The notes beneath the pieces are model-generated. The model was not told the origin of the DNA, did no database searches, and was given only the letters and a program-made list of their open reading frames with translations. A stretch of DNA of 64,000 nucleotides from an uncultured Candidatus Binatia bacterium (GTDB taxonomy: Bacteria > Desulfobacterota > Binatia > UBA9968 > JAJDTQ01), in the NCBI GenBank assembly GCA_965242525.1, contig OZ251459.1, forward strand, positions 1,024,001 to 1,088,000. The letters run 5' to 3'. Below are positions 41,709-64,000 of this stretch, in pieces. The position numbers were made by a program, and so were the translations under genes. Within the stretch, counting starts at the first letter, position 1. Each line of letters opens with the position of its first letter.

Positions 41709-43808
41709 ATGCCTCCCTCCCCGGATGTTCGGCCCCGACGCCTGCCCCTGCTGTTGCTGCTGATCGCGCTGTCCACGTCGTTCCTGTACGTGGTGGACAA
41801 GGGACACTTCTACCGTCCCGGCCACCATGCCCAGGTTTCCGCGAAGAACCTGGCCATCGCCGAGAACTTGTCCCCCGACCACGGTTTCCGGTTGTTCCGG
41901 GCGCGGCACCCGGGATCGGACGGCGCCCCCGCGTACCAGACGTACAGCCGCTTTCCCGTCGGCGGGTACGCACTCATCAAACTCGCCATCCTCCCCTTCG
42001 GAAACGACCTCTCCGCAAAGATCCTCTCCGCACGAATCCTCATGCTCCTCCTGTTCAGCGCCGCCGCCCTCCTGGCTTTCCACTCCCTCGCACGTATCAC
42101 CTCCCGCCCCTGGATCGCACTGGCCGCCACCCTCATGGCCTTCTCCTCCTACTACATGCTGTTCTACGGCGACGCGGTCACCACCGAGGGCAGCGTGGAC
42201 CTGTTCGCGGTCATGCTGGCCTTCCACGGCATGACCGTATTCGTCCAGGAGGGACGCTTCCCCCAGTTGCTTGCCAAGACCGGCGTCGCGCTGCTGCTGG
42301 GCTGGCACGTGTACGCTTTCCTGCTTCCCTTCATCCTCCTGGGCTTGGCTTGGCAAGCCCTTCGGGCATGGAAGCACGGAACTGCGCCTTGGCCCCGGCT
42401 GCGCTTCACCGCAGTGACGGTGCTGCGCAGCCGCTACACCGCCCTGGGCTTGGCCGCGCTGCTCTTCGGCGCGGCCCTCCTCACCTTCAACTTCGCCAAC
42501 GAGTACGCGGCTTTCGGAGGCGAGACCCCGGTGACCGAACTGCCATCGTTCCAGTCCATGCTCGGGCACACCGGACTGGATCGGGACTTCGTTCCGGTGG
42601 GTTGGTCCCCCGTGGGTTGGTGGCTGCGCTTCCTGCGCCAGCAGTTCTTTCGCGTCTGCGTGGCCTCCGTTCCCTTCCTGCTCACCGACCGGGCAGCCGA
42701 CATGGCGGGGTGGTTTCTCCACCTTTCCCCTTTGGCCCCGGGTTTCCTGGGCCCCGGGATGTCGGGGCTGACGTTGTCGATTTACCTCCTGGCGTTGCTG
42801 ACGGTCGTGGGAGCGGCCGCAGCCCTCGCTCGGTTTGCGGGGCCGATGCTGCAAGGGCGGCAACGCCTCCTGCTGGCCGCCCTTGCCCTGTCCGGGTTCT
42901 GCTGGGCCCTGCCCATGCGCAACGCTTCCGTAGACCACAACCACGAGGCATTGTTCTACGTGGGCGTCCCGCTGGTGCTCTACTCGCTGCTCCTGCTGTA
43001 CGTCCGCGAACGATGGGGGGCTCGTCCGGTAGCCGCCTTTGCCGCCGCGGCCCTGCTCGCCTTCGTGGCCTCCGCCTTCCGGATGGATCAACGATGGGGC
43101 CTCGACGCCCATGCGGCCGAGACCCAACGGACCGCCATGGCCGAACTCGGGGCCATCCGCGAAACCACCCGGGGCAAGGCGGTCCTGGTCCTCGACCCCA
43201 TGAATCCGGAATGGCCCACGCAGGTCACATGGGCGCACTACTATCTGGCGGGAAGCGTCCTGGTACGCATCTTCGACATGGAAGCCGCCGCCCGCGCCGC
43301 GGACTTCATCGTCACCCCCGACCGCGTGGAGAGCGACGCCCTGCTCACACCCCGGAACCAACAGGTGTTCCTGCATGATTCGTCGGGTATCGAGGACTTC
43401 GTCGAGTGGTACCGGGCCGCCTACCAAAGGGCAGTGTCCGCCGGAGACCCTGCGGCGCGCTCCCGCTTCGATGTCTATCTCGATGACGACACCCTGACCT
43501 TCGTCAGGGAGCCCTGCGTCCGGGAGGAGCTGGTAGCGGGACGGATACCGGGATGGAGACCGAGGGGGATCTTCGTGGACGTGACCCTGGAAGACCCGAA
43601 GGACCTGCCCCGACGATACAAACGGTACGGCTCGGACGATCCCGTCTTCCCGCTCATCACTTACCCCGTGCTGTTCGAAGGGAAGTGCGTCGCCATCGTT
43701 CCACTCCCCGGTTATCCTGTCTCCCGCATCAGGATGAGACAGAACCGAAGCCGATACCGACGCCCATGGTCAGTAGAGATGGACCTCCGGACGAACCGGT
43801 TCCGCTGA
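41709..43808 (+). CDS. Polytopic membrane protein (GT-C/ArnT-PMT-like glycosyltransferase) with an extracytoplasmic C-terminal domain
   Basis: About 11-13 hydrophobic segments, YSRFPVGGYAL loop, C-terminal RSRFDVYL..REPC..DLP..CVA..LPGY domain. Confidence 0.6.
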   Translation: MPPSPDVRPRRLPLLLLLIALSTSFLYVVDKGHFYRPGHHAQVSAKNLAIAENLSPDHGFRLFRARHPGSDGAPAYQTYSRFPVGGYALIKLAILPFGNDLSAKILSARILMLLLFSAAALLAFHSLARITSRPWIALAATLMAFSSYYMLFYGDAVTTEGSVDLFAVMLAFHGMTVFVQEGRFPQLLAKTGVALLLGWHVYAFLLPFILLGLAWQALRAWKHGTAPWPRLRFTAVTVLRSRYTALGLAALLFGAALLTFNFANEYAAFGGETPVTELPSFQSMLGHTGLDRDFVPVGWSPVGWWLRFLRQQFFRVCVASVPFLLTDRAADMAGWFLHLSPLAPGFLGPGMSGLTLSIYLLALLTVVGAAAALARFAGPMLQGRQRLLLAALALSGFCWALPMRNASVDHNHEALFYVGVPLVLYSLLLLYVRERWGARPVAAFAAAALLAFVASAFRMDQRWGLDAHAAETQRTAMAELGAIRETTRGKAVLVLDPMNPEWPTQVTWAHYYLAGSVLVRIFDMEAAARAADFIVTPDRVESDALLTPRNQQVFLHDSSGIEDFVEWYRAAYQRAVSAGDPAARSRFDVYLDDDTLTFVREPCVREELVAGRIPGWRPRGIFVDVTLEDPKDLPRRYKRYGSDDPVFPLITYPVLFEGKCVAIVPLPGYPVSRIRMRQNRSRYRRPWSVEMDLRTNRFR

Positions 43809-55891: not shown

Positions 55892-56179
55892 ATGCGGTCG
55901 GCCATCGCTCTCGTCTGGTTCAGCCTCTTCTGGACCCTGCTCTGCTTCCTGTTCTACCGGGACAGGGCGTTGATCGTGCAAGCCAGCCTGCCCGTGTGGA
56001 TCGCCTCGGCCGCGGCTTGGCTCCTGTACCGCCTGGCGGCTTCCCTGCCCATGCCGTGGCGCCGGGCGCCGAAGCCGCGGGCCAGGAGGACCGCCAAGTC
56101 CAAACCCGCCCCCCGGACCCGCAGCCCGCGCCCGACCGCACGCGCCTCCACCGCCAAGCCGAGGAAGCGCAGGTCGTAA
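55892..56179 (+). CDS. Small two-TM hypothetical protein with a very basic tail
   Basis: Two hydrophobic segments, then a K/R/P/A-rich C-terminus. Confidence 0.55.
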   Translation: MRSAIALVWFSLFWTLLCFLFYRDRALIVQASLPVWIASAAAWLLYRLAASLPMPWRRAPKPRARRTAKSKPAPRTRSPRPTARASTAKPRKRRS

Positions 56180-56182
56180 AAA

Positions 56183-56304
56183 GGAGCCTCTGAACAATCG
56201 GAGGAGCATGAGCGCGTCCTTCGACTCCGCTTCGCTACGCTCAGGACGAACGGGGACAGGAGGGTCAGGGTGAGGGAACCCATCCCGGATGTCTCGATTG
56301 TTCA
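56183..56304 (+). mobile_element. Family A MITE whose right TIR is interrupted by a family C end
   Basis: GGAGCCTCTGAACAATCG..core..CGATTGTTCA, then GGCTCTTCCGGCTTTCGTGTGGGC (56305-56328). Confidence 0.8.
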
Positions 56305-56364
56305 GGCTCTTCCGGCTTTCGTGTGGGCAAGGCAGGAGGGAAAGGGGAGCGACAGAGGCCACTC

Positions 56365-56414
56365 CGTCATTCCCGCGAAATTTCACTCCGTCATTCCCGC
56401 GAAAGCGGGAATCC
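56365..56414 (+). repeat. Family B (partial copy plus full copy)
   Basis: CGTCATTCCCGCGAAA..CGTCATTCCCGCGAAAGCGGGAATCC. Confidence 0.9.
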
Positions 56415-56419
56415 ATTTT

Positions 56420-56680
56420 CATCGCTCTCGTTGTACAAACTTCTCCGGGTCGGATTACTCCTGGAACATCTGAACAATCCGGACAGGGGGCATGAGCGCG
56501 TCCTTCGACTTCGCTTCGCTACGCTCAGGACGAACGGGGATAGGGGCGTCAGGATGGAGGGAATCGGGAATCCACTCTGGATATCTCGATTGTTCAGAGG
56601 TTCCTCTTCTCGATCCACTCGATTTTCACGCCCGATTCCATTGGCGTGACACCGACATACATGCGCCATGAAGTTCGATG
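56420..56680 (-). pseudogene. Relic of a small GIY-YIG (YhbQ/UPF0213-like) nuclease gene, internally deleted and split by a family A MITE
   Basis: The minus strand encodes YVGVT, QWNRA[1-nt gap]KIEWIEK, and after the MITE SNPTRRSLYNE. Confidence 0.7.
56463..56604 (+). mobile_element. Family A MITE, 142 bp
   Basis: TIRs GGAACATCTGAACAATC and GATTGTTCAGAGGTTCC (16/17 match). Flanks TCCT and TCTT form an imperfect 4-bp TSD. Confidence 0.85.
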
Positions 56681-56689
56681 ATGAGGGAT

Positions 56690-56885
56690 GGATTCCCGCT
56701 TTCGCGGGAATGACGGGGTGAGCGTCTACGGGAATGACGAAGTGGGCTTTTCGCGGGAATGACAAGGTAAGCGTCCGCGGGAATGACGAGGGTGGGCTTT
56801 TCGCGGGAATGATGGGGTAAGCGTCCGCGGGAATGACGCGGTGGGATTTGCGGGAATGACGGGAGTGGGCGCCTGCGGGGATGAC
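56690..56885 (-). repeat. Tandem array of 8 family B half-units, period about 23-26 bp
   Basis: GCGGGAATGAC core with alternating linkers (..GT(G/A)AGCGTC.. and ..GTGGGCTTTTC). Confidence 0.92.
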
Positions 56886-56928
56886 GGGGCGGCCGATGGC
56901 GCGGAGCCTCCGGGCGGCCGGCGTACGG

Positions 56929-57741
56929 TTACCGGTGGTTGGCCAGGAACTTGCGGATGGCGGCGTGGGCCGCGTCGGGGTTCGCGAAGAAGTAGCTGTG
57001 CTTCTCCCCTTCGAGAGCGACGAAGACCGCTCCGGGTATCTCCGCGGCGAGTACGTCCGCGGCCTGCCGCAACGAGGTGTCGCTGGTCACATGGTGCTCT
57101 TCCTCGCCCACGAGGATGAGGGTCGGCATACGGATGTCCTCCAGCCGGTCCCTGACGTCGTGCTGCTGCCGCGCGATGACGTGGCGGAAGTAGTGCTCCA
57201 CCGGGTTGAGACGGGCCATGCGCGCCTCCAGGTACCGCTCCACCCGTCCGGGATGCCGCCGGGCGAACTCGTCGGTGAAGCCCACGACCCTGCCGTGCTC
57301 CCTCACGTACCGCTCGTAGCCCCATTCCACCATCTCCGCGGCGATGCGCAGCGGAATGCCCCGGGTGTGGGGATAGAAGGCGCGGCCCGACGCGCAGACG
57401 AGGGCGGACACCCGGTGGGCGTGGTCCAGGGCCATCACCTGGGCCACCGAGCCGCCCATGGAGTGGCCGCAGACCACCGCGCCGCGGACATCCAGATGCT
57501 CCAGGACCGCGGCCGCATCATCGGCGAAGTCCTTGACGCCATAGGGTTCCGACGGCCAGTCCGAGCGCCCGACGCCCCGGTAGTCGCACAGTATGACCTG
57601 GTGGTCCCGGGAGAACTCCGCCACCTGGTGGAGCTTCCACACGTCGCAATGGCAGGCGGTCTCGCTCAGGAACAGCAGCGGGCGACCGGCGCCGTGGGTC
57701 TCGTAGTAGATCCTCGCGCCTTCCCTGTGGATGAAGGGCAT
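56929..57741 (-). CDS. Alpha/beta hydrolase
   Basis: DYRGVGRS, GHSMGG and PTLILVGE motifs. Start MPFIHREG. Confidence 0.9.
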   Translation of the reverse strand: MPFIHREGARIYYETHGAGRPLLFLSETACHCDVWKLHQVAEFSRDHQVILCDYRGVGRSDWPSEPYGVKDFADDAAAVLEHLDVRGAVVCGHSMGGSVAQVMALDHAHRVSALVCASGRAFYPHTRGIPLRIAAEMVEWGYERYVREHGRVVGFTDEFARRHPGRVERYLEARMARLNPVEHYFRHVIARQQHDVRDRLEDIRMPTLILVGEEEHHVTSDTSLRQAADVLAAEIPGAVFVALEGEKHSYFFANPDAAHAAIRKFLANHR

Positions 57742-59822: not shown

Positions 59823-62012
59823 TCAAACCGGAGGCTCCGCGGCCAGCCGCTCCCGGAGGCCGGTCAGGCGGCTGGTGGAGCGGAGGTTCTTCACCGCCAT
59901 CCCCAGGGCCCGGGGTTGTCCGATTACGACCACCAGCCGCTTCCCGCGGGTCACCGCGGTGTACAGCAGGTTGCGTTGCAGCAGCAGGTAGTGCTGCATG
60001 GCCAGCGGGATGACCACCGCGGGGTACTCGGAGCCCTGGCTCTTGTGCACCGAGGTGGCGTAGGCCAGCGCCACTTCGTCCAGCTCCCCGAAGTCGTAGG
60101 GGACCGTGCGGTCGTCGAAGGCCACCTGGACGCTGCCCTCGTCCGGGTCCACCTGCGACACCTGCCCGATGTCCCCGTTGAAGACGTCCTTGTCGTAGTC
60201 GTTGACCGTCTGGATGACCTTGTCCCCGGGCGCGTAGGTCCAGCCGAAACGCTGGACCTGCGGTTCGGCGCCGGCGTTGAGCCGTTTCTGGAGCTCCAGG
60301 TTCAGGGAGCGGGTCCCCAGGCTGCCGCGGTTCATGGGGGTCAGCACCTGGATGTCCCGGATGGGGTTCATGCCGAAGCGCCGGGGGATGCGCTCGGTCA
60401 CCACCTGGAACAGCTTGTCGCAGATATCCTCCGGGGACTCCGCGGGGATGAAGTAGAAGTCCTGCAACTCGGCGCCCTCCCGGGTCTCGATGGGCTCGCC
60501 GGCGTTGATGCGGTGGGCGTTGACCACGATGCTGGAGGAAGCCGCCTGCCGGAAGATCTCCGTCAGCCGCACCGTGGGCACGCGCCCGGACTCGATGACG
60601 TCGTGCAGCACCGCGCCCGGGCCCACCGAGGGGAGCTGGTCCACGTCCCCCACCAGCAGCACCGCGGCATGGGACGGCGCCGCCTTGAGGAGGTGGTTCA
60701 TCAGCAGCACGTCCACCATGGAGACTTCGTCCACGATCAACAGGTCCGCGTCCAGGGGGTCGGCGTCGTTCTTGCGGAAGCCCATCTGCCTGGGGTCGAA
60801 CTCCAGCAGGCGGTGGATGGTCCTGGCCTCGGCGCGGGCGGACTCCGACAGCCGCTTGGCCGCGCGCCCGGTGGGCGCGCACAGCAGCACCTTCCCGATA
60901 CGGCCTTCCAGCAGCGTGAGCAGGCTGTTGACGATGGTGGTCTTGCCCACCCCGGGTCCCCCGGTCAATACCGTGACCTTGCCCTCGAGCACCGTTTCGA
61001 GGGCCTGGCGCTGGGAAGGGGAGAGGGTGACGCCGGTCAGGGCCTCTACCCGCGGCAGGGCGCCGGCGGCCTCCACGCGGCCCCAGGGCGGAAGGCCGGC
61101 GAGCAGGCGCCGGAGGTGGCCGGCCACCCCCGCTTCGGCGTGGTGGAGGGGCGCCAGGAAGACCGCTGGCTCGCCGCGCAGGGGTTCCTCCACCAGGTTG
61201 GCGGCCGCGGTCTCCAGCTCGACGGCCCGTTCCACCAGCTCGGGCGCCACCTCCAGGAGTTGCGAGGTGCGCTCCGCCAGCCCGCGCCGTTCCGCGGCGC
61301 AGTGTCCTTCCGACGACGACTCCCACAGCACGTGGTGCAGGGCGGCCCGCACCCGGATCATGGAATCGGGCGCGATGCCCAGCTTCCGGGCGATGACGTC
61401 CGCGGTGACGAAGCCGATGCCGCCGATGTCCAGGGCCAGGCGGTAGGGGTTGTCCCGGATGCGCCGGACCGCGTCTTCGCCATAGACCCGGTAGATGCGC
61501 GCGGCCCGGGCGCTGCCGATGCCGTGGGAGTGCAGGAAGACCATGATGTCCCGGACCGCCTTCTGCTCGCGCCACGCCTCGGTGACCCGGGCCTGGCGCT
61601 TGGCGCCGATGCCCTCCAGCGACCGGAGCCGTTCCGGCGTCCGTTCGATGACGTCGAACACCTCCGCGCCGAAGGCCTCCACCAACTGGTGCGCGAAGTG
61701 CGGGCCGATGCCCTTGATGAGACCCGACCCCAGGTACTTTTTCACTCCGTCGAGGGTGGTGGGAGGGACGATCTCCAAGGTCTCGGCGCGGAACTGGAGG
61801 CCGTAGGTGGAGTCGTTCACCCAGGCGCCGCGGCAGTCGATCTCTTCGCCCGGACCCACCGACGCGGCGCTGCCCACCACGGTGGCCAGTTCCCGGCGCC
61901 CCCGCACCTTGACCTGCAGGACGCAGAAGCCGGTGTCCTCGCCGTGGAAGGTGATGCGCTCCACCAGCCCCTGCAGGCGTTCTTCCTCGTGTTCGACCGG
62001 GTTGGCCGTCAT
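59823..62012 (-). CDS. recD2: ATP-dependent RecD2-like DNA helicase
   Basis: YLGSGLIKGIGP, GGPGVGKTT, APTGRAAKR, DEVSM, GDVDQLPSVGPG, HKSQGSEY and LYTAVTR motifs. Confidence 0.94.
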   Translation of the reverse strand: MTANPVEHEEERLQGLVERITFHGEDTGFCVLQVKVRGRRELATVVGSAASVGPGEEIDCRGAWVNDSTYGLQFRAETLEIVPPTTLDGVKKYLGSGLIKGIGPHFAHQLVEAFGAEVFDVIERTPERLRSLEGIGAKRQARVTEAWREQKAVRDIMVFLHSHGIGSARAARIYRVYGEDAVRRIRDNPYRLALDIGGIGFVTADVIARKLGIAPDSMIRVRAALHHVLWESSSEGHCAAERRGLAERTSQLLEVAPELVERAVELETAAANLVEEPLRGEPAVFLAPLHHAEAGVAGHLRRLLAGLPPWGRVEAAGALPRVEALTGVTLSPSQRQALETVLEGKVTVLTGGPGVGKTTIVNSLLTLLEGRIGKVLLCAPTGRAAKRLSESARAEARTIHRLLEFDPRQMGFRKNDADPLDADLLIVDEVSMVDVLLMNHLLKAAPSHAAVLLVGDVDQLPSVGPGAVLHDVIESGRVPTVRLTEIFRQAASSSIVVNAHRINAGEPIETREGAELQDFYFIPAESPEDICDKLFQVVTERIPRRFGMNPIRDIQVLTPMNRGSLGTRSLNLELQKRLNAGAEPQVQRFGWTYAPGDKVIQTVNDYDKDVFNGDIGQVSQVDPDEGSVQVAFDDRTVPYDFGELDEVALAYATSVHKSQGSEYPAVVIPLAMQHYLLLQRNLLYTAVTRGKRLVVVIGQPRALGMAVKNLRSTSRLTGLRERLAAEPPV

Positions 62013-62035
62013 GGGCGGGATCCGTTGGGGAACGA

Positions 62036-62138
62036 GCGCGTCCTTCGACTTCGCTTCGCTACGCTCAGGACGAACGGGAACCTTCACTTCGCTACGCTCG
62101 GGATGAACCGGAACCTTCGCTACGCTCGGGATGAACGA
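62036..62138 (+). repeat. Family A core followed by two tandem partial copies
   Basis: Full core, then CTTCGCTACGCTCGGGATGAAC x2. Confidence 0.88.
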
Positions 62139-62160
62139 GGGGCGTTGTCCGGAGTTTCCT

Positions 62161-62322
62161 GACGCCTCGGGAATTCGTGTGGGTTGTGGGACCCTCCACC
62201 CACATGATGAGGTCGCTTCCCTTCCATTCCGTCCATGCCGTCCTCGGTTTGGCGCCGCAGACACCTCACCTCGTCATTCCCGCGAAAGCGGGAATCCATC
62301 CCGCTCGAAAGCCGGAAGAGCC
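62161..62322. mobile_element. Degenerate family C MITE containing a family B copy (62272-62297)
   Basis: GACGCCTCGGGAATTCGTGTGGGT ... GAAAGCCGGAAGAGCC. Flanks AGTTTCCT and GGTTTCCC match at 6/8. Confidence 0.65.
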
Positions 62323-63490: not shown

Positions 63491-64000
63491 TCATAGGTCC
63501 ATATCTACTACCCAGTGGCGTTGGCCTCGGGTTCCTCCGGGTCGTTGTCCCGTCCAGATGCGGGAGACAGGATAACCGGGGAGTGAAAGGACGGCGACGC
63601 ACTTCCCCTCGAACAGCACGGGGTACAGGAGGAACTGGATGAGGGGATCGTCCGAGCCGTACCATTTGTATTGTGGGGGCAGGTCCTTCGGGTCTTCCAG
63701 GGTCACGTCCACGAAGATCCTTCTCGGGTTCCATCCCGGTATCCATCCCGTTACCAGATCCCCCCAGACGCAGGGCTCCCTGACGAAGGTCAGGGTGTCG
63801 TCATCGAGATAGACATCGAAGCGGGAGCGCGCCGCAGGGTCTCCGGCGGACACTGCCTGTTGGTAGGCGGCCCGGTACCACTCGACGAAATCGGCGATAC
63901 CCGACGAATCATGCAGGAACACCTGTTGGTTCCGGGGTGTGAGCAGGGCGTCGCTCTCCACGCGGTCGGGGGTGACGATGAAGTCCGCGGCGCGGGCGGC
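63491..64000 (-). CDS. 3' end of a paralogue of the 41709-43808 membrane protein (5' end lies outside the window)
   Basis: The reverse complement is near-identical to 43285-43520 and homologous to the end of that gene. Confidence 0.88.
   Translation of the reverse strand, partial: AARAADFIVTPDRVESDALLTPRNQQVFLHDSSGIADFVEWYRAAYQQAVSAGDPAARSRFDVYLDDDTLTFVREPCVWGDLVTGWIPGWNPRRIFVDVTLEDPKDLPPQYKWYGSDDPLIQFLLYPVLFEGKCVAVLSLPGYPVSRIWTGQRPGGTRGQRHWVVDMDL

Follow-up and report, generated by a model that had tools for sequence, protein, structure and literature searches.

The locus at positions 56183-56885 of the DNA stretch analysed here (64,000 nucleotides, hereafter the window, corresponding to C1:1024001-1088000 of the source genome, G000) is very probably a dead, internally deleted NTS-ssn-NTS cassette, that is, a gene for a small GIY-YIG nuclease between inverted NTS repeats, which was likely carried as ISL3 cargo and was later split by an IS5-type MITE. 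We read directly from the sequences how the unit is built and what has been deleted from it, that it has an ISL3 left end and contains the MITE, and that relatives are without it at the same site; from these we infer its history. Positions below refer to the window unless prefixed with C1.

The unit abuts an upstream IS5-type MITE (family A; 56183-56304, plus strand) whose right terminal repeat is truncated where an ISL3-type left end begins (56305-56356, plus strand); this end stands alone, its right-hand counterpart being absent beyond the unit. It is followed on the plus strand by a partial NTS copy, made up of tag and left arm and lying on the tag side (56365-56388), and by the left NTS hairpin, also known as dRS3 or CGTC-1 (56389-56416), which matches the published NTS at 27 of 28 positions and on the minus strand also codes for the final residues and stop of the relic. 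The pseudogene itself occupies the minus strand in three pieces. Its 3' piece (56391-56462, with SNPTRRSLYNE) was recovered by tblastn against the genome (65% over residues 82-104, E 5e-4), and the middle piece (56609-56642, WNRA-W-KIEWIE, one base missing) was recognised by alignment to an intact gene elsewhere in the genome and meets the 5' piece (56643-56690, YVGVT) across a deletion of 140 nt. Between the 3' and middle pieces sits an IS5-type MITE of 142 bp (56463-56604), with a core motif on the minus strand at 56502-56537. The right NTS hairpin (56688-56715, minus strand) is inverted relative to the left one, the two hairpins facing inward with their tags outward, and is followed by seven partial NTS copies (56716-56885, minus strand) spaced 23-26 bp apart, every one of them on the tag side; a similar two-unit array of partial copies adjoins the intact ssn copy.

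This arrangement bears out the first-pass annotation in its description of inverted family B repeats around a GIY-YIG relic. All three coding stretches that it named were found on the minus strand: the YVGVT codons (56645-56662), WNRA-W-KIEWIEK, in which one base is missing, and SNPTRRSLYNE. The 142-bp MITE that it reported is likewise present, but the accompanying 4-bp duplication is imperfect, reading TCCT at 56459-56462 and TCTT at 56605-56608. Each NTS hairpin is predicted to fold as DNA at -9 kcal/mol with a z-score of about -4 (-4.2 for the left one), and the core of the MITE shows no folding advantage over its shuffles (z -0.8 and +0.85). A search of 56100-57000 against Rfam returned no structured RNA match, and no tRNA was found in the window.

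The lesions of the relic are not peculiar to one assembly step, because contigs from run X1, which may be the source sample, agree with 56391-56498 and 56527-56713 at every position. Contig joints over the region were left out of this comparison, being largely derived from other repeat copies, and no contig covers the whole unit. In run X6, from a related strain, the left MITE edge and the right array are present, the right-hand contig having a 25-letter gap. Elsewhere in the window, a 95-aa ORF at 55892-56179 with a hydrophobic N-terminus and a basic tail is conserved in the genus and has no Pfam or NCBIfam match, a 455-bp inverted duplication (43287-43741 and 63546-64000) is 93% alike across 19.8 kb, and a helicase ORF at 59823-62264, which we take from its sequence to be RecD2-like, lies between members of the two repeat families.

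A PF01541 profile scan of the genome gave four matches, and the window relic is not among them. The search for an intact repeat-flanked GIY-YIG gene in the genome, as the first-pass annotation had proposed, yielded one, at C1:3303652-3303966, where a gene for a 104-aa protein lies between inverted arrays of the same NTS repeat. This protein contains the GIY-YIG domain (PF01541, E 1.5e-15) and no second Pfam family, and it matched no NCBIfam family and, by sequence, no solved structure. With the MITE excised, the relic aligns to the intact gene at 127 of 154 identical nucleotides, with a score of 110, where 1000 shuffles averaged 9 and did not exceed 32. As judged by this match to the intact, NTS-flanked paralogue, the relic is an ssn pseudogene, and its reading as a collapsed repeat-nuclease-repeat unit holds. 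Gene nucleotides 69-208 (about 140 nt) are gone from it, including the codons for Arg28 and the catalytic Glu65; the start and the Tyr7 region are eroded, one base is missing further on, and the ATG ahead of YVGVT is the codon of residue 17 and not a start. With the 140-nt deletion, the frameshift and the split by the MITE, the window relic can encode no enzyme and is not autonomous.

The same lesions rule out the window copy as the autonomous parent of the family B repeats, the role for which it had originally been named as a candidate. The surviving intact copy does not fill that role either. Over its 3' segment, the relic shows 83% likeness to 13 further relics, which were chosen for length, and 76% to the intact gene; among themselves the relics are 83% alike, compared with 78% to that gene. 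At 10 of 10 diagnostic columns the window copy has the relic state, siding with the other relics. The intact copy is thereby excluded as the direct parent, and the relics must go back to a sister copy of the surviving gene. In close homologues, moreover, a stop codon directly precedes the NTS. The intact gene is without this stop, so that its reading frame continues across the repeat and adds 9 extra residues, and such read-through is also common to the relics.

Several lines of evidence place the intact paralogue in the Ssn family, and the window relic as its pseudogene. As a stand-in for N. meningitidis SsnA we used a 94-aa N. gonorrhoeae protein, taken as its orthologue from its length, its Y6, Y17 and E64 residues and its NTS flanks. 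The intact protein shares 61.5% identity with it over 88% cover (E 2e-30) and groups with it in a tree (support 89/92), and Y6, Y17 and E64 of the gonococcal protein align to Y7, Y18 and E65 of the paralogue. In addition, 223 repeats in the genome differ from the published NTS at no more than one position. According to Chenal et al. (Nat Commun 2025, PMC11893778), SsnA binds the NTS and, on single strands, cuts a few bases to its 5' side, requires Y6, Y17 and E64 to do so, and shares this site-specific cleavage of single-stranded NTS with other members of its family, activity having been demonstrated for four homologues. The suggestion that an enzyme of this kind may cut these palindromes therefore agrees with published work, and the accompanying remark that no mechanism had been demonstrated is outdated by that same report. 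Chenal et al. also found repeats on both sides of 42% of ssn homologues and noted that NTS-ssnA-NTS resembles a mobile element, mobility being offered there as a hypothesis only; MITEs, tandem partial copies and deletion derivatives do not figure in the main text of their report. The repeat itself was classed as CGTC-1, identical to dRS3, by Di Nocera et al. (2013, PMC3733652), who reported no dedicated transposase for it. The terms GIY-YIG and YhbQ have 0 occurrences in that article, which is therefore not the source of the remark in the first-pass annotation that yhbQ genes have been noted beside CGTC repeats.

The association of gene and repeat is nonetheless readily seen in our own survey of 80 homologue loci. 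Among the 68 loci with full 300-bp flanks (the other 12 were dropped), flanking repeats (SRM) occurred on both sides in 29 and on at least one side in 45, compared with 0 and 4 of 61 distant control windows, in line with the enrichment at intact homologues that had been anticipated. As the pairing of gene and repeat and the cutting have both been described before, the locus amounts for the most part to a pseudogene from a known family. Its common features with the described Ssn/NTS system (PMC11893778) are the 28-nt repeat, the NTS-gene-NTS layout and, in the intact paralogue, the three catalytic residues; it differs in that the window copy is a pseudogene, the intact copy extends through the NTS, and the cassettes of this lineage are ISL3-wrapped and amplified as deletion derivatives. 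The repeats have the 8-bp stem, 4-nt loop, CGTC tag, CCA tail and mostly head-to-head dimers of CGTC-1 REPs and Neisseria dRS3 (PMC3733652), but the dimer spacers here are gene fossils.

These fossils form a series across the genome. The main contig holds 227 palindromes in 164 clusters, including 53 inward-facing pairs; one 27-mer is common to 208 of the 227, and the CGTC tag is present in 220 of 226 oriented copies. Spacers derived from ssn were found in 43 of the 53 dimers, the intact copy included (z>5, 30 shuffles each). Three deletion junctions recur among them. Junction 1 is present in 28 copies (22 with both ISL3 ends, 7 with 8-bp duplications), junction 2 in 12 (5 with both ends, 1 with a duplication) and junction 3 in 3 (all 3 with both ends, 1 with a duplication), and this recurrence indicates that deleted forms were copied after the gene had died. 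The junction of the window unit is unique in the main contig. Among 120 NTS singles, 50 are without ssn or ISL3 sequence and fall outside an explanation by ISL3. In seven other members of the genus, none of 31 dimers, which were the first-listed places and not a random draw, had ssn-like spacers or these ISL3 ends, and the generalisation that all CGTC dimers are collapsed ssn cassettes therefore fails outside this lineage. The genus NTS dimers (L067-L112) have G-rich/C-rich spacers of 45-51 bp, and several lie within other IS-like ends. Their outer flanks mirror each other in 8 of 27 cases versus 24 of 702, whereas those of G000 barely do so (7/52 versus 114/2652), and this symmetry was set aside as evidence.

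ISL3 ends, of which the one at 56305-56356 is absent from the first-pass annotation, best account for the spread of the relics in this genome. The window end matches the left end of an ISL3 transposase pseudogene at C1:3894787 in 42 of 52 columns, the first 16 exactly, and the outer end motifs of the relics correspond to the left end of that pseudogene and the right end of another at C1:2329256. Both ends were found in 29 of the 53 dimers and neither end in about 14, where the end finder has a background of 31 in 400 random windows. A target duplication of 8 bp is an ISL3 trait, and duplications matching at 7 or more of 8 positions flank 8 of the 29 double-ended dimers versus 6 of 812 mismatched pairs; the remaining 21 have no clear duplication, and the intact copy matches at 4 of 8. 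Because the 28-copy junction includes 22 units with both ends and 7 with 8-bp duplications, the relics were likely spread by an ISL3 transposase. For the window unit, no right ISL3 end and no target duplication were found, and since it has one ISL3 end, no duplication and a unique junction, its own transposition is one that we infer by analogy with its family.

All five ISL3 transposase matches in the genome appear broken or partial, and current activity of an ISL3 mover cannot be shown for that reason; the matches read included no IS5 or ISL3 transposase with its frame intact. The capture of the ssn cassette by ISL3 appears to be lineage-specific, because these ends occur at 0 of the 68 homologue loci elsewhere and the same ISL3-wrapped relic is carried by the relative G023. 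We propose that an ssn cassette would have been captured between ISL3 ends in this lineage, that the resulting transposase-less unit would have been copied in trans by the ISL3 transposase while its interior eroded through repeated deletions, and that the shortest forms of the cassette would have been copied most. A separate observation concerns an ISL3-ended mini relic at C1:677642-677917, which lies about 170 bp from the site of an intact ssn in G015, G017 and G021 and may be either a decayed orthologue or a chance reinsertion.

Comparison with relatives shows the window site without the unit. Among 27 genomes, 19 relative loci were located, 17 of them with both flanks, and in none of these 17 was an NTS or ssn present at the orthologous site. 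In 16 of the 17, a DoxX-family gene occupies the interval (window 56179-56929); it was not found in G000. A later deletion beside the insertion would explain the loss of both the doxX-type gene and the right ISL3 end. At the same site, G023 is additionally without the small membrane ORF, and three relatives (L039, L050, L052) have a different hairpin repeat family at the same intergenic spot.

The element that split the relic belongs to a large family. An exact 4-bp duplication flanks 54 of 117 paired copies on the main contig, and the terminal repeats agree with the termini of an IS5-family relic (C1:2465162-2466027), which encodes DUF772 and DDE_Tnp_1 and has a CAAA/CAAA duplication. With IS5-family terminal repeats and a 4-bp duplication, imperfect at this locus, 56463-56604 is an IS5-derived MITE. 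The core motif has 645 copies in the genome, including the one within the relic and one at 56218-56253. It is also found next to genes that form a second clade of small GIY-YIG proteins, which separates from Ssn in the tree (support 100/99): it lies on both sides of two such genes (L017, L023) and on one side of two (L001, L024), and is absent from three of the seven loci. The G000 copy of this second clade (C1:3870142) has two TAG stops, and yet a different hairpin, TGTC-tagged and with a longer loop, borders a third GIY-YIG type at L015 (G032; near 1500-1830). Like known ISL3- and IS5-derived MITEs, the elements of this genome have terminal repeats matching its ISL3 and IS5 relics and, in part of the copies, 8-bp and 4-bp target duplications, respectively, but here the cargo consists of recognition repeats and the remains of small GIY-YIG nuclease cassettes.

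An alternative that we consider improbable is that the cassette mobilised itself in the manner of a REPtron, Ssn cutting 5' of the outward NTS and host repair copying and reinserting the cassette and its derivatives, with ISL3 incidental. There is a resemblance to REPtrons (RAYT, GTAG REPs, REPINs), in which a nuclease gene also lies between tagged hairpins and dimers are dispersed genome-wide, but the enzyme here is a GIY-YIG protein and not an HUH tyrosine transposase, the tag is CGTC and not GTAG, and dispersal is tied to DDE (ISL3) ends. GIY-YIG nucleases hydrolyse DNA without a covalent intermediate, unlike HUH RAYTs, and we know of no strand-transfer chemistry for them, which speaks against self-mobilisation, as does the outward orientation of the tags, by which each strand would be cut at one end only. 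On the other hand, cassettes that carry a repeat variant of their own and no ISL3 ends do occur at scattered sites: G014 and G004 have one at a site that is empty in G000, and where G019 has its cassette, G011 has a dimer without the gene between flanks that match, a single case in which the change may have gone either way. The closest homologues (57-78% identity) are also spread across many phyla, and a near-full ssn was found in 5 of 8 genus genomes with more than 200 NTS versus 2 of 20 with fewer, although related genomes in these counts are not independent. Against this stand G001, G012 and G022, which have 436, 309 and 235 NTS, are 95-99% complete and gave no ssn match with two queries; NTS repeats can therefore persist without an ssn gene. 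It is also the 8-bp duplications at ISL3 ends that mark the amplified relics. Mobility of this kind is the hypothesis raised by Chenal et al. (PMC11893778).

A further observation in favour of this alternative is that partial copies lie almost exclusively on the cut side. A partial copy consists of flank, tag and left arm, and the tag side is the side on which Ssn cuts. In G000, partial copies are on the tag side in 106 cases versus 3 among 254 hairpins, these being largely inherited and not independent. At homologue loci the counts are 42 on the tag side versus 7 among 221 hairpins (23 versus 3 of 69 loci), and for genus dimers 20 versus 0 among 62 hairpins (16 versus 0 of 33 loci). Furthermore, the hexamer that precedes a partial copy recurs ahead of the full copy in 10 of 42 cases versus 55 of 1722 crossed pairs, which is what a local duplication would predict. 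Palindromes stall polymerase in both orientations. Because stalling alone would act both ways, the one-sidedness in these counts, which cover hairpins of the Ssn-linked repeats, may point to an oriented process such as nicking by Ssn. We therefore raise, as a speculative possibility, that Ssn may be the engine of the CGTC repeat superfamily, a nick 5' of the tag being followed by repair that duplicates flank, tag and left arm. The polarity would be its footprint, together with the site in G019 and G011, at which cassette and gene-less dimer would be alleles. Such repair would build outward arrays and would move NTS-ssn-NTS cassettes or collapse them into gene-less dimers, and the second small GIY-YIG clade would act likewise on the MITE core motif. 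In a search of literature listings with limited coverage of subscription papers, and of the main text of PMC11893778, neither this cut-side polarity nor the capture of ssn by ISL3 was found in print.

A spread of the relics by ectopic recombination or gene conversion among NTS and MITE copies that were already in place, in which Ssn would be either a passenger or a restriction factor domesticated against incoming ssDNA, is very unlikely: it could draw on the more than 200 near-identical hairpins and the MITE cores as homologous targets, and would fit the many units with mismatched or missing ends, the doxX loss as a local rearrangement beside the relic, and the restriction of Neisseria transformation by SsnA (PMC11893778), but conversion makes no 8-bp target duplications, and the site is repeat-free in every one of the relatives read.

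An ISL3-carried cassette that died, lost its interior and was later split by a MITE remains our preferred reading of the window locus. The hairpins of the relic would remain substrates for the one intact paralogue, if it is expressed. The genome as a whole offers a natural record in which one genome holds an intact cassette together with dozens of its deletion derivatives, and it makes a clear case for a DDE transposon being able to hijack ssn cassettes and multiply them. It also calls for caution, as high NTS counts or dimers containing ssn fossils are not in themselves proof of Ssn-driven mobility. The polarity of the partial copies, for its part, yields a concrete prediction on how CGTC repeats multiply, a matter treated as a hypothesis in PMC11893778 and left unanswered in PMC3733652. 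If that prediction is true, these repeats would be propagated by a hydrolytic nuclease without transposase chemistry.
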